Source: Escherichia coli (GTDB taxonomy: Bacteria; Pseudomonadota; Gammaproteobacteria; Enterobacterales; Enterobacteriaceae). Taken from it: a DNA stretch of 64,000 nucleotides. Below the pieces are notes generated by a model. The model ran no database searches and was not told where the DNA came from. It worked only from the letters and a program-made list of their open reading frames with translations. A program made the translations under genes and the position numbers. Of this stretch, positions 4,623-11,905 are shown piece after piece (the stretch's first letter is position 1; each line of letters begins with the position of its first letter). The stretch lies in assembly GCF_045037415.1 (NCBI RefSeq), contig NZ_CP173438.1; one strand, given 5' to 3'.

Positions 4623-4636
4623 TCTATTGAAGAATG

Positions 4637-4667
4637 CCGGATACGAATGGTTTTGTGTCGTATCCGG
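4637..4667 (+). terminator. Stem-loop downstream of yicI (10-bp stem CCGGATACGA/TCGTATCCGG, 11-nt loop), no T-tract
   Basis: Perfect inverted repeat read directly from the sequence 15 nt after the yicI stop; lacks a U-run so it may be a stability or REP-like element rather than an intrinsic terminator. Confidence 0.3.
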
Positions 4668-4916
4668 TAAATAATCTCACATCTGGTAATAAATATTTCT
4701 TCCATCGTATTTGCGAGCATGATCACGATTATTCATCACGAAAATGTGATCTGTGCTGAAAAATATCCCTTAACCGCCTTGCTTTGTTTTATCACTGTCC
4801 GGATTACGGACAGATTTTAGTATTGTTGTGAAATTATTCTGCTTTATATTTACCCTCAGAGATGGCAACTGAAGCTCTTCCATATGGGGCTTCTTAATCT
4901 GTGATAAGGGTAAAAA

Positions 4917-6470
4917 ATGCAAATGATTACCTCGCGACAAAACAGATTATTACGATTCCTTTTACCTCGAAGGGAATATACGACTATTGTTACGATTGCC
5001 GGCTATTTAAATGTTTCGGAAAAAACCATTCAACGTGATTTACGTTTACTTGAGCAATGGCTGGGACAATGGAGAATAAATGTTGAGAAGCGTGCTGGCG
5101 CGGGTGTGATGTTAAGCGCGGAGAATATTGCTGATTTGCTGCATCTTGATCATTTGTTGGTGGCAGAATGTGAAGAGATTGATGGTGTAATGAATAATGC
5201 CAGGCGCGTTAAAATAGCGTCGCAGTTATTAAGTGAAACACCGAATGAAACGTCGATCAGTAAATTGTCAGAACGCTATTTTATCAGCGGAGCCTCTATT
5301 GTTAATGACCTGAGAGTAATTGAGTCCTGGCTTGCGCCGTTGGGGTTATCGTTGATCCGCAGCCCAAGTGGTACGCATATTGAAGGTAGTGAAGGGCAAG
5401 TCCGACAGGCAATGGCATTACTGATTAACGGCATTATTAACCATAATGAGCCGCAAGGTGTCGTGTATTCACGTCTGGATCCCGGAAGCTATAAAGCATT
5501 AGTCCATTATTTTGGAGAGGAAGAAGTGTTATTTGTCCAGTCATTGTTACTGGATATGGAAAATGAATTAAGTTGGTCTTTGGGAGAACCTTATTACGTT
5601 AACATTTTTACTCATATCCTTATTATGATGTATCGCAACACGCACGGGAATGCGTTATCAAGAGAAGAAGATCAAACCAGGCAATATGATGAAAATATCT
5701 TTAATGTTGCCAGTCAGATGATTCATAAGATAGAACAACGAATTGCACATACATTGCCCGATGATGAAGTCTGGTTTATTTATCAATATATCATTTCATC
5801 AGGTGTGGCGATTGATGGACAAAAAGATGTTAGCATTATTTCACATATGCAGGCCAGCAATGAAGCGCGTCTGATTACCTGGCGTTTAATTACGGTATTC
5901 AGTGACATCGTGGACTGCGATTTTAGTGAAGACAGCGCATTATATGATGGCTTATTGGTGCATATTAAACCGCTGATTAACCGACTAAATTATCGTATTC
6001 ATATCCGTAATCCATTGCTGGAAGATATTAAAGCAGAATTAGCGGATGTCTGGCGGTTGACGCAATATGTGGTGAATCAGGTATTTAAAACCTGGGGTGA
6101 GAATGCGGTGAGCGAGGATGAAGTGGATTACCTGACCGTTCATTTTCAGGCTGCGATGGAACGGCAAATTGCCCGTAAACGCGTATTACTGGTCTGTTCA
6201 ACCGGAATCGGAACTTCGCATCTACTGAAAAGCCGTATTCTGCGAGCATTTCCTGAATGGACGATTGTTGATGTTATTTCAGCAGCGAATTTATCACAGG
6301 TTTTGCCTGACAATATCGAACTGATTATTTCGACCATTAATTTGCCTACAGTCACTATGCCGGTCGCTTATGTTACCGCTTTTTTTAATGATGCCGATAT
6401 TAAGCGGGTCACTGAAATGGTGATTACGGAAAAATTACATCATGCGACGTCTCGGGTCGTTGAAATTTAA
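4917..6470 (+). CDS. PRD-containing, PTS-regulated transcriptional activator (MtlR/LicR-like): N-terminal HTH, PRD region, C-terminal EIIB(Gat)-like domain
   Basis: 517-aa ORF; N-terminal HTH-like segment (TIVTIAGYLNVSEKTIQRDLRLLEQWL); C-terminal RKRVLLVCSTGIGTSHLLKSRI resembles the phosphorylatable Cys loop of galactitol-type EIIB domains found in PRD activators; AT-rich gene heading a PTS operon. Confidence 0.6.
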   Translation: MQMITSRQNRLLRFLLPRREYTTIVTIAGYLNVSEKTIQRDLRLLEQWLGQWRINVEKRAGAGVMLSAENIADLLHLDHLLVAECEEIDGVMNNARRVKIASQLLSETPNETSISKLSERYFISGASIVNDLRVIESWLAPLGLSLIRSPSGTHIEGSEGQVRQAMALLINGIINHNEPQGVVYSRLDPGSYKALVHYFGEEEVLFVQSLLLDMENELSWSLGEPYYVNIFTHILIMMYRNTHGNALSREEDQTRQYDENIFNVASQMIHKIEQRIAHTLPDDEVWFIYQYIISSGVAIDGQKDVSIISHMQASNEARLITWRLITVFSDIVDCDFSEDSALYDGLLVHIKPLINRLNYRIHIRNPLLEDIKAELADVWRLTQYVVNQVFKTWGENAVSEDEVDYLTVHFQAAMERQIARKRVLLVCSTGIGTSHLLKSRILRAFPEWTIVDVISAANLSQVLPDNIELIISTINLPTVTMPVAYVTAFFNDADIKRVTEMVITEKLHHATSRVVEI

Positions 6471-6496
6471 TGTCAGAATTTTATGAGGTATGACGA

Positions 6497-6967
6497 ATGG
6501 ACATAACAAAAATCCTGAATACGAATCGCGTTATTTTAGATATGCAAGCGACGAATAAAGCGGAGGCGATTGAAGAATTAACTAATCTTCTCAAAAAAGA
6601 TGGTGCGATCGATTGTCGGGAAACCTTTATTAAAGATGTCTGGCAGCGCGAAGCGGAAGGCTCGACTGGTTTTGAAAATCATATTGCGATCCCGCATGGT
6701 AAATCTTCAGCTGTGATTAATACTACGCTGGCAATTGGCCGTACCCGCCAGGATATTCCCTGGGAAACGCTGGATGGCAGTAGCGTGCGCTGTATTATTT
6801 TATTTGCGGTACGTCTTGAAGATCAAAATACCACCCATATCCGTTTACTTTCCCAGGTCGCGGGCGCGCTGGCGGATGATGACATCATAGAACAATTGTT
6901 AGTTGAGACGAGTCCGCAAAAAATCATTGATCTCTTTAGTCAGTATGCACAATCCGATGTCTGCTAA
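6497..6967 (+). CDS. PTS EIIA component, fructose/mannitol (type 2) family
   Basis: 156-aa ORF with the EIIA-2 His motif context (NHIAIPHGKS); RBS-spaced 26 nt after the regulator gene. Confidence 0.7.
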   Translation: MDITKILNTNRVILDMQATNKAEAIEELTNLLKKDGAIDCRETFIKDVWQREAEGSTGFENHIAIPHGKSSAVINTTLAIGRTRQDIPWETLDGSSVRCIILFAVRLEDQNTTHIRLLSQVAGALADDDIIEQLLVETSPQKIIDLFSQYAQSDVC

Positions 6968-10227: not shown

Positions 10228-10247
10228 GGCGGGGTGACCCGCCTTTT
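10228..10247 (+). terminator. Possible intrinsic terminator between aldolase paralogue 2 and the ROK kinase gene
   Basis: GGCGGG / CCCGCC 6-bp GC stem with 4-nt loop followed by TTTT, 9 nt after the aldolase stop codon. Confidence 0.35.
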
Positions 10248-10266
10248 ACGCAACAAGGAACGAGAT

Positions 10267-11199
10267 ATGCACTATCTGGGGTTGGATATTGGTGGGACCA
10301 AAATCGCCGCCGTTGTCATGGATGCGCATGGCTGGGAGATTCGCCGTTACCGCTGCCCGACGCAAAAGTCGACATATCAACAATTTGTCTCATGCGTTGT
10401 GGCGCTTATCGAGCAGATTAGGCGGGACGTTCAACGACCGATGCTGACAGGGATCGCCTTACCCGGCAGTATCTCGCCACTCACTGGCCTGATTAAAAAC
10501 GCGAATATTCAGGTGATTAACGGTCATGCGTTACAGGCTGATTTGCAGCAATTGCTTGGGCAACCGGTGGTGATAGCCAATGATGGTAACTGTTTCGCGC
10601 TATCAGAAGCTTGCGACGGTGCCGGGCAAGATTATGACGTGGTATTTGGTATTACGCTTGGTACGGGCTGCGGCGGTGGCATTGCCATCAAGCAACGACC
10701 GTTTATAGGGGCCTGGGGAAATGCTGCCGAATGCGGTCATATCACGTTGCCAGGCTATACGGAGCAGGAAGATGGTCCATCAGTCAGTTGCTATTGCGGC
10801 AAACACAACTGCGTGGAGTCGTTTGTTTCCGGCAGCGGTTTTAGTGAACGCTATCAACAGATGACTGGTAACTTGCTCACTCCTGCGGCGATTGTCACCC
10901 TGGCACAACGTGGTGATGCTTGTGCCATGCAGCAGGTGGCACGTTTTCGCCAACAGCTTGCCCGCACGCTGGCAACCATCGTTAACGTTGTTGACCCTGG
11001 CGTGATTGTGATCGGCGGCGGGCTTTCGAATGTGGAACTGCTTATCACCGATCTGAACGCAGAAGTCGCTCCACTGGTTTTCACCGATCAATTCACCACT
11101 CCCATTGTAAAAGCACAGCACGGCGACAGTAGCGGAATGCGTGGCGCTGCCTGGCTTGCTATGCGCAACGGAGAAGCCAATGAAACGTTCACAAATTAA
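10267..11199 (+). CDS. ROK-family sugar kinase (NagK/Mak-like)
   Basis: ORF-track protein from the internal Met MHYLGLDIGGTKIA (ATP-binding N-terminus, RBS AAGGAA upstream of ATG at 10267); ROK zinc motif CYCGKHNCVESFVSGSG; the longer ORF start at 10234 lies inside the upstream hairpin. Confidence 0.7.
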   Translation: MHYLGLDIGGTKIAAVVMDAHGWEIRRYRCPTQKSTYQQFVSCVVALIEQIRRDVQRPMLTGIALPGSISPLTGLIKNANIQVINGHALQADLQQLLGQPVVIANDGNCFALSEACDGAGQDYDVVFGITLGTGCGGGIAIKQRPFIGAWGNAAECGHITLPGYTEQEDGPSVSCYCGKHNCVESFVSGSGFSERYQQMTGNLLTPAAIVTLAQRGDACAMQQVARFRQQLARTLATIVNVVDPGVIVIGGGLSNVELLITDLNAEVAPLVFTDQFTTPIVKAQHGDSSGMRGAAWLAMRNGEANETFTN

Positions 11200-11860
11200 T
11201 TATGTTATTGATAAAGCACATGCCATTGCGCAGACCTTCCGCGTTTGTTTGCCAGAGTTCGCCTATTTTACGGTGGATGACTGGCTGCAGCGGGAACGGG
11301 ATAACTGGCAAGAAGTGGTCGACTTACAGCTCGGTTGGGATATCACCGATTTTGGTCGTGGTGATTTCAACCAAACGGGACTAACACTGCTAACGATGCG
11401 CAACGGCGCGCTGGGGTCGGCGGCATATCCAAAACCGTATGCTGAGAAAATGTTGCAGATCCAACAAGATCAGCAGACTCCCTGGCATTTTCACACCCAC
11501 AAAATGGAAGATATCCTCAATCGGGGCGGTGGAGACTTATGCATGCAGTTGGCCTGGGCCAACGAAGCCAATCTCTGTGATGATCAACGAGTCATTACCG
11601 TGAGTGTTGATGGTCAGCGGCGTACCATGAAACCTGGTGAAACGCTGGTGCTAAAGCCGGGGCAGGGCATTTGCCTGCCGCCGCGTCTGTATCATCGCTT
11701 CTGGGCGGAAAAAGCGTTTGTTCTCGGCTGGGAAATCTCGATGGTAAATGATGACCAACACGATAATTATTTTCTTGAGCCGGGAGGACGTTTTCCGGCG
11801 ATAGAAGAAGATGAACCGGTGAAATGGTTATTGTGCGGTGAGTATGGAATTTTGCGCTAA
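11180..11860 (+). CDS. Cupin-fold sugar isomerase, D-lyxose/D-mannose ketol-isomerase family
   Basis: 226 aa from MKRSQINYV (RBS GGAG upstream; overlaps the kinase gene end by 20 nt); cupin metal-binding motif context WHFHTHKMEDILNRGGGDL with downstream His; resembles characterised D-lyxose isomerases as I recall them. Confidence 0.6.
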   Translation: MKRSQINYVIDKAHAIAQTFRVCLPEFAYFTVDDWLQRERDNWQEVVDLQLGWDITDFGRGDFNQTGLTLLTMRNGALGSAAYPKPYAEKMLQIQQDQQTPWHFHTHKMEDILNRGGGDLCMQLAWANEANLCDDQRVITVSVDGQRRTMKPGETLVLKPGQGICLPPRLYHRFWAEKAFVLGWEISMVNDDQHDNYFLEPGGRFPAIEEDEPVKWLLCGEYGILR

Positions 11861-11869
11861 TAACGGGGA

Positions 11870-11905
11870 ACGCTAGCGCTGATATCCGCTAGCGTCCTTA
11901 TTTTT
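11870..11905 (+). terminator. Rho-independent terminator after the isomerase gene (stem ACGCTAGCG/CGCTAGCGT, then T-run)
   Basis: 9-bp perfect stem with 8-nt loop followed by CCTTATTTTT, 10 nt after the TAA stop; convergent with yicH. Confidence 0.5.

Follow-up and report, generated by a model that had tools for sequence, protein, structure and literature searches.

The eight genes lying between yicI and yicH in a 64-kb window of the Escherichia coli chromosome (64,000 nucleotides of contig NZ_CP173438.1, to whose numbering positions refer unless another record is named) are the frz operon of extraintestinal pathogenic E. coli (ExPEC), which was described in 2009. A preliminary description, made from the sequence without database searches, had put this interval forward as an undescribed system. 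This proposal is refuted, since a named operon published in 2009 agrees with the interval in site, length and GC content (PMC12928451). The same description had stated that the cluster does not correspond to frv, frw, sgc, gat or aga, which was correct. Considering all the evidence jointly, we hold it to be very probable that frz is a chromosomal, non-mobile operon of eight genes, comprising a phosphotransferase system (PTS) transporter, its own regulator and four sugar enzymes, and that the locus is an old one.

Eight intact open reading frames, all on the + strand, occupy positions 4917-11860 and are flanked by yicI and yicH. Strain 21AR0707 carries an identical copy, for which RefSeq lists the same eight genes with equal lengths (Table 1). 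The intergenic gaps measure 11-80 nt, the genes for the ROK kinase and the cupin overlap by 20 nt, and a non-coding stretch of 294 nt precedes the first gene, which encodes the regulator. In K-12 MG1655, yicI and yicH are adjacent, only 52 nt apart. Similarity to K-12 is lost near position 4639, within a hairpin past the yicI stop codon, and returns at 11903, one base before the stop codon of yicH. The open reading frames, the RefSeq copy and the K-12 comparison thus bear out the initial observation of eight co-oriented genes in the yicI-yicH gap that K-12 does not have. The base composition is indeed mixed, as had also been noted, with 41-44% GC in the genes for the regulator, EIIA and EIIB and 50-56% in those for EIIC and the enzymes.

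The published counterpart is the region GR27 of BEN2908, an avian ExPEC strain whose genome paper appeared in 2026. GR27 is bounded by yicH and yicI (3991916..3999198), is 7283 bp long with 48.67% GC, and is equated with the frz operon described by Rouquet et al. 2009 (J Bacteriol 191:4427), which is found in ExPEC and adherent-invasive E. coli (AIEC) strains and is missing from K-12; E2348/69 is among the strains scored as carriers (PMC12928451). The interval 4623-11905 likewise comprises 7283 bp, with 48.63% GC, and we identify it as frz because the flanks, the length, the GC content and the absence from K-12 all agree. No difference from the BEN2908 operon was detected in flanks, length, GC content or distribution, the latter covering B2 strains of ExPEC, AIEC and enteropathogenic E. 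coli (EPEC) and not K-12. The Rouquet abstract of 2009 is said to list three PTS subunits of the fructose subfamily, a PTS activator of the Mga family, two type II ketose-1,6-bisphosphate aldolases, a ROK kinase and a cupin.

According to reviews, frz is transcribed as a single operon, aids survival in late stationary phase at low oxygen as well as fitness under stress, and biases the type 1 fimbriae switch towards ON. Furthermore, the literature credits it with a contribution to intestinal colonisation and uses it as a marker of avian pathogenic E. coli. A 2021 review places frz under "unknown/not clearly known functions", and no physiological substrate is given in the reviews and genome papers through 2026, so that the earlier statement of an unestablished substrate stands. 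The product names given to the eight proteins in the databases are generic and none of them uses "frz"; a reader working from the sequence could therefore not have recognised the operon.

The regulator consists of an HTH_11 domain, a Mga helix-turn-helix (HTH) domain, two PRDs and an EIIB-like PTS_IIB domain (Pfam, NCBIfam). This confirms the PRD/EIIB-domain activator that had been proposed and adds two HTH domains to it. The protein contains no EIIA domain, and no CAT RNA-binding domain was detected with Pfam even at E <= 10. Judged by its predicted domains, the architecture is that of a DNA-binding PTS activator of the MtlR/LicR/Mga type. MtlR, LicR, ManR and Mga of Firmicutes share this layout of an HTH and a Mga-like HTH, two PRDs, an EIIB-like domain and conserved phosphorylation sites at His and Cys, but MtlR and LicR carry a C-terminal EIIA-like domain, which the frz regulator is without. 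Residues His233, His349, His409 and Cys427 are invariant in five genera and are therefore consistent with control by PTS phosphorylation, which is established for regulators of the MtlR type. The RefSeq name of this protein, "BglG family transcription antiterminator", is probably wrong, because with HTH domains present and the CAT domain missing it covers only the PRDs.

Alignment of the sequence upstream of the regulator gene across five genera showed a series of invariant blocks, including a CRP-like site and the ribosome-binding site of the regulator gene (Table 1). The blocks are invariant even beside an unrelated upstream neighbour and therefore belong to the module. They also include the half-sites of a palindrome whose centre varies. 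Just downstream of it lies a candidate promoter, whose -35 and -10 hexamers are both invariant across genera. This promoter was proposed from cross-genus conservation and not from the sigma-70 consensus scan, which returned fewer sites than in shuffled sequences and none in the upstream region. Moreover, the upstream region held no match to the Cra/FruR operator, and no known RNA family was found in 4000-12500 (Rfam).

The palindrome can be read in two ways. If the regulator were a BglG-type antiterminator, as its RefSeq name implies, it would act on a leader hairpin at 4795-4813, transcribed from a promoter further upstream near 4759. The consensus scan indeed scored the palindrome as a terminator-like hairpin, it stands with a T-rich tail ahead of the regulator gene and is conserved, the CRP-like site lies further upstream, and a hairpin would tolerate the differences in stem length and loop that are seen between genera. 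However, the predicted RNA fold, at -12.4 kcal/mol in E. coli, drops to about -8 kcal/mol in Salmonella and Citrobacter, and the hairpin is weak in three of the five genera. The sequence that follows it is conserved base for base, with a -35/-10-like pair, and is not merely T-rich. In addition, the N-terminus of the regulator is made up of two DNA-binding HTH domains in place of the CAT domain that was searched for in Pfam. We regard antitermination as quite unlikely and favour the palindrome as a candidate operator, at which the activator would serve an adjacent promoter that depends on it, because its half-sites are invariant, its centre is variable, its RNA fold is weak and the conserved -35/-10 pair lies just downstream. 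Within the cluster, a terminator is present only after the last gene. The short gaps, the gene overlap, this lone terminal terminator and the single transcript stated in reviews all argue for one operon.

The transporter is of the fructose family, as first proposed, with each subunit scoring above its TIGRFAM family cut-off: 127 bits for EIIA (TIGR00848, cut-off 103.5), 100 bits for EIIB (TIGR00829, cut-off 76.85) and 311 bits for EIIC (TIGR01427, cut-off 157.55). EIIB has an N-terminal CTAGIAHT motif with the phosphorylated cysteine. The EIIC gene is the most conserved of the module, at 94-96% amino acid identity across genera.

NCBIfam, Pfam and structure matches also support the four enzymes as originally assigned, namely two class II aldolases, a ROK kinase and a cupin of the D-lyxose isomerase type. 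The aldolases are 32% identical to each other and are therefore old paralogues and not the products of a recent tandem duplication. In alignments, both keep the Asp-His, ExELG, GTAHG, HGGS(G) and KINV motifs, which hold the zinc ligands (three His) and the catalytic Asp, and the related YdjI (PDB 6OFU) is among the structural matches of both. Aldolase 1 is divergent and falls below every NCBIfam equivalog cut-off. Aldolase 2 reached 526 bits with NF006042 (cut-off 405) and 247-251 bits, below the cut-offs, with the models of tagatose-bisphosphate aldolases. Most class II aldolases have a catalytic Glu in a mobile loop after ExELG (IEEH in the Thermus enzyme). In aldolase 1 this loop reads HLADAPRYDQAAN, with no alignable Glu, and in aldolase 2 the Glu is shifted (SVEGG). 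These changes of the loop may go along with an altered chemistry or a non-bisphosphate substrate.

The ROK kinase is nearest to the Mak manno/fructokinase (319 bits with PRK09557, cut-off 443) and contains the zinc motif CYCGKHNC. The cupin matches PDB 3KMH (E 5e-64, ~55% identity), conserves the metal motif (HFH..E and H) and scores 271 bits with NF051472, below the cut-off of 350; its homologues carry PF07385. The characterised protein behind this match is the isomerase Z5688 of E. coli O157:H7, which acts on D-lyxose and D-mannose (PMC6746899). Z5688 (PDB 3KMH/3MPB; van Staalduinen et al. 2010) belongs to the same cupin family PF07385, so that the homology to an O157:H7 enzyme mentioned in the preliminary description was confirmed, but it is only ~55% identical to the frz cupin and lies in a different genomic context.

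From these assignments a catabolic route can be proposed. The IIA/IIB/IIC chain would take up and phosphorylate a hexose, a ketose or a glycoside. The cupin would convert a free D-manno or D-lyxo aldose into the ketose, the Mak-like ROK kinase would phosphorylate at C6, and the two aldolase paralogues would split a ketose phosphate or bisphosphate into trioses. The regulator would act as a DNA-binding activator of the MtlR/LicR/Mga type, controlled through PTS phosphorylation of its PRD histidines and its EIIB-like cysteine, and would activate the operon whenever the transporter is engaged and HPr available. Its target would be the single promoter that precedes its own gene, with CRP probably acting alongside it.

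As the main rival reading, frz might be chiefly a sensor. The PTS and the PRD regulator would respond to a sugar that is scarce in the host or gut and, by way of phosphorylation state or a metabolite, would alter global regulation (the type 1 fimbriae switch and stationary-phase fitness) at a small carbon flux. The published phenotypes are fim switching to ON and late stationary survival at low oxygen, and not growth on a sugar; no substrate has been named, and the phosphorylation sites of the regulator are invariant. However, the four enzymes are strictly conserved together with the transporter in five genera and have intact catalytic motifs, which argues for selection on catalysis, and the metabolic enzymes, too, reportedly contribute to the phenotypes (in the abstract of 2009). 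A mainly sensory role therefore appears rather unlikely to us, and we prefer an operon that encodes sugar catabolism under its own regulator.

Known systems share parts of this layout. In the routes for D-tagatose, galactitol and N-acetylgalactosamine (the gat and aga operons and the tagatose PTS pathway of Bacillus licheniformis and Klebsiella), PTS uptake likewise leads to a ketose bisphosphate that a GatY/KbaY-type class II aldolase cleaves. frz differs from these routes in that its second aldolase is a true class II paralogue and not a partner of the GatZ/KbaZ type, in that its kinase is of the ROK family and not of the PfkB or GatZ type, and in having an extra cupin isomerase. A ydj-like cluster of Salmonella enterica (loci L005, 7598-14541, and L006) encodes a 62%-identical cupin together with a class II aldolase and a sugar kinase. 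In contrast to frz, its transporter is of the MFS and not a PTS, its kinase is PfkB and not ROK, and it has one aldolase. It also contains a mutarotase (aldose epimerase), a Zn-dehydrogenase, a DeoR regulator and a flanking integrase. The logic of isomerase, kinase and aldolase therefore recurs without a PTS. The Salmonella cluster resembles the ydj cluster of E. coli with an isomerase added to it.

A synteny comparison across E. coli found the cluster in 1602-1605 of 5426 complete genomes (~30%). Both flanks were present in 1602 of them, and the operon therefore occupies one and the same yicI-yicH site in this species. The copy in the window is 100% identical to that of the ST131 strain EC958 and 99.8% identical to that of the EPEC strain E2348/69. 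Sensitive blastn, which covers the DNA level only, detected no second, diverged frz-like locus in E. coli. A ~53%-identity homologue (P0071), traced in the hunt for a paralogous cluster of the O157 type, came from an unrelated organism and had no sugar context.

The junctions are free of integrase genes and of direct or inverted repeats; the repeat search gave only short chance-like matches, confirming what had been noted at the outset. There is no tRNA target at the junction either, the tRNA-Sec gene lying 4 kb off on the far side of yicJI. An intact frz copy was found on none of 72,556 plasmids, the sole full-length match being a mislabelled 4.9-Mb chromosome.

The same eight genes, in the same order, are present in four more genera, represented by Citrobacter, a Klebsiella aerogenes-type genome, Salmonella enterica and Raoultella. 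The Citrobacter contig reads yicJ-yicI-frz-yicH-xanP-gltS-recG and thus has the operon in the same slot. The K. aerogenes-type contig also has it at the yicI-yicH site, plus a further RpiR/GH4/PTS cassette. In Salmonella enterica, frz lies upstream of yicJI and not downstream, and in Raoultella it lies at an unrelated site. Between E. coli and Citrobacter, the frz proteins are 76-96% identical, compared with 88.6% for yicI, 81.2% for yicH, 95.7% for xanP and 93.8% for gltS. Within E. coli, two divergent frz-positive genomes differ from the window by 0.5-4% in the operon and by 2-3.6% in the flanks. The low GC content of the regulator, EIIA and EIIB genes is common to all genera examined; it is therefore a property of the module and no sign of recent arrival.

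These data bear on whether frz could be an undescribed accessory sugar island that was recently inserted between yicI and yicH. The generic product names, which never mention frz, the lack of the cluster in K-12 and the mixed GC content would all be compatible with such an origin. We nevertheless consider it extremely improbable, given that the operon is named and studied, that there are no mobility genes, repeats or plasmid copies, that other genera have it in the same slot at a flank-like divergence, and that they share its low-GC pattern. Instead, we favour an old enterobacterial locus, which would have persisted in phylogroup B2 and in certain other lineages of E. coli and disappeared from the rest, because the slot is shared with Citrobacter and K. 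aerogenes, the divergence is like that of the flanks, and integrase, repeats and plasmid copies are missing; a recent insertion fits less well. Of the "accessory island" of the preliminary description, the accessory part stands, as this is a sugar cluster without mobility genes that K-12 does not have, whereas "island" is doubtful in view of the same slot and the flank-like divergence elsewhere.

Several observations on individual copies concern the same locus. In the K. aerogenes-type contig, genes for an RpiR/SIS regulator, for a GH4 6-phospho-glycosidase and for a PTS EIICB lie between frz and yicH (L011, 10747-14910). The accumulation of sugar modules in the yicI-yicH slot thus extends to other genera. 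Two plasmid-labelled E. coli records contain short fragments at 99% identity with the rest of the operon absent, namely 787 bp of aldolase 1 in NZ_JBUBJV010000003.1 (62762-63548) and 607 bp of the regulator gene in NZ_MN335640.1 (86250-86856). In NZ_CP141204.1 (3069315-3078591), from an otherwise identical strain, ~776 extra bases in the 8.5-kb region split the match in two, and are probably an insertion sequence in or beside frz.

Some points weigh against frz being an old, non-mobile catabolic operon as proposed here. The gene-by-gene match to the published operon draws on what the abstract of 2009 is said to contain, together with the agreement in locus, length and GC content. Each catabolic step is a prediction for an operon whose substrate is unnamed, and three of the enzymes (aldolase 1, the kinase and the cupin) stay under the NCBIfam equivalog cut-offs. 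Furthermore, the enzyme set is odd for a PTS route, in that phosphorylation by the PTS would seem to leave no need for a free-sugar isomerase or a ROK kinase, and a PfkB-type 1-phosphofructokinase is absent from the cluster. Finally, in a Salmonella contig (L009), frz has a transposase fragment on one side and a 55-aa integrase fragment on the other (2988-3152, 10700-10867), and the module has therefore moved at least once.

The odd enzyme set would be explained either by a glycoside of which the second moiety is set free, or by the ROK kinase acting on a ketose 1-phosphate. yicJI, which encodes an alpha-xyloside transporter and an alpha-xylosidase, adjoins frz in three genera in two arrangements. 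This adjacency hints at the glycoside option, and the true substrate could be released by the YicI glycosidase. A more far-reaching proposal is that frz encodes a biochemically undescribed sugar route, the flux of which is read by the PRD regulator and feeds into fimbrial phase switching. Here the PTS may deliver a ketose 1-phosphate or a phospho-glycoside, to which the ROK kinase, and not PfkB, may add the C6 phosphate. The two ancient aldolase paralogues may serve two stereochemistries, and the cupin may funnel in a free D-manno or D-lyxo aldose. Taken as a whole, this proposal is tentative, and we think it doubtful that all its parts hold together.

At the left end of the window, the gene for tRNA-Sec (selC) lies at 525-619 on the - strand, just upstream of yicJ, and two related genomes have a gene for a tyrosine recombinase that extends past the equivalent of the left end (1-225). 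The window therefore begins at the edge of a selC-associated island, whose counterpart in BEN2908 is AGI-3 (GR28).

Table 1. Features of the frz operon, its control region and its flanks
Feature	Position	Strand	Remarks
yicJ	855-2294	+	upstream of yicI
yicI, alpha-xylosidase, GH31, left core flank	2304-4622	+	97.2% nt identity to K-12
Hairpin directly past the yicI stop codon	4636-4668	+	read from the sequence; diverged version in K-12
Conserved frz control region	4705-4916	+	blocks invariant in five genera
CRP-like site TGCGAGCATGATCACG, in an invariant block	4712-4727		two mismatches to TGTGA-N6-TCACA; consensus match, putative function
Invariant block AAATGTGATCTG	4742-4753		five-genus alignment
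Palindrome CTGTCCGGATTACGGACAG, TGTCCGG-N-GGACA	4795-4813 (TGTCCGG-N-GGACA at 4796-4812)		half-sites TGTCC/GGACA invariant, centre varies
Invariant block ATTTAGTATTGTTG, followed by TATATTTA			five-genus alignment
Candidate activator-dependent promoter	4823-4850	+	putative; weak -35 TTGTTG (4823-4828), 16-nt spacer, good -10 TATATT (4845-4850)
frz regulator gene, 517 aa	4917-6470	+	Pfam/NCBIfam domains
PTS EIIA, fructose/mannitol family, 156 aa	6497-6967	+	TIGR00848
PTS EIIB, fructose family, 104 aa	6985-7299	+	TIGR00829
PTS EIIC, fructose family, 363 aa	7324-8415	+	TIGR01427
Class II aldolase 1, 283 aa	8427-9278	+	motifs; below equivalog cut-offs
Class II ketose-bisphosphate aldolase 2, 286 aa	9359-10219	+	NF006042
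ROK-family sugar kinase, 310 aa from the RefSeq start	10267-11199	+	PRK09557, below cut-off
Cupin sugar isomerase, D-lyxose/D-mannose type, 226 aa	11180-11860	+	PDB 3KMH match
Terminator-like hairpin ACGCTAGCG...CGCTAGCGT, then T-run; operon end, abuts the yicH stop codon	11870-11905	+	
yicH, AsmA family, right core flank	11904-13613	-	97.1% nt identity to K-12

Taken together, the locus is not to be reported as new, and the question of its substrate dates back to 2009. The conserved control region and the invariant His and Cys residues of the regulator provide handles for a constitutively active regulator and for inducer screening. frz is a lineage marker and fitness factor of the B2 ExPEC lineages, including ST131 and ST95, which cause most extraintestinal E. 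coli disease.

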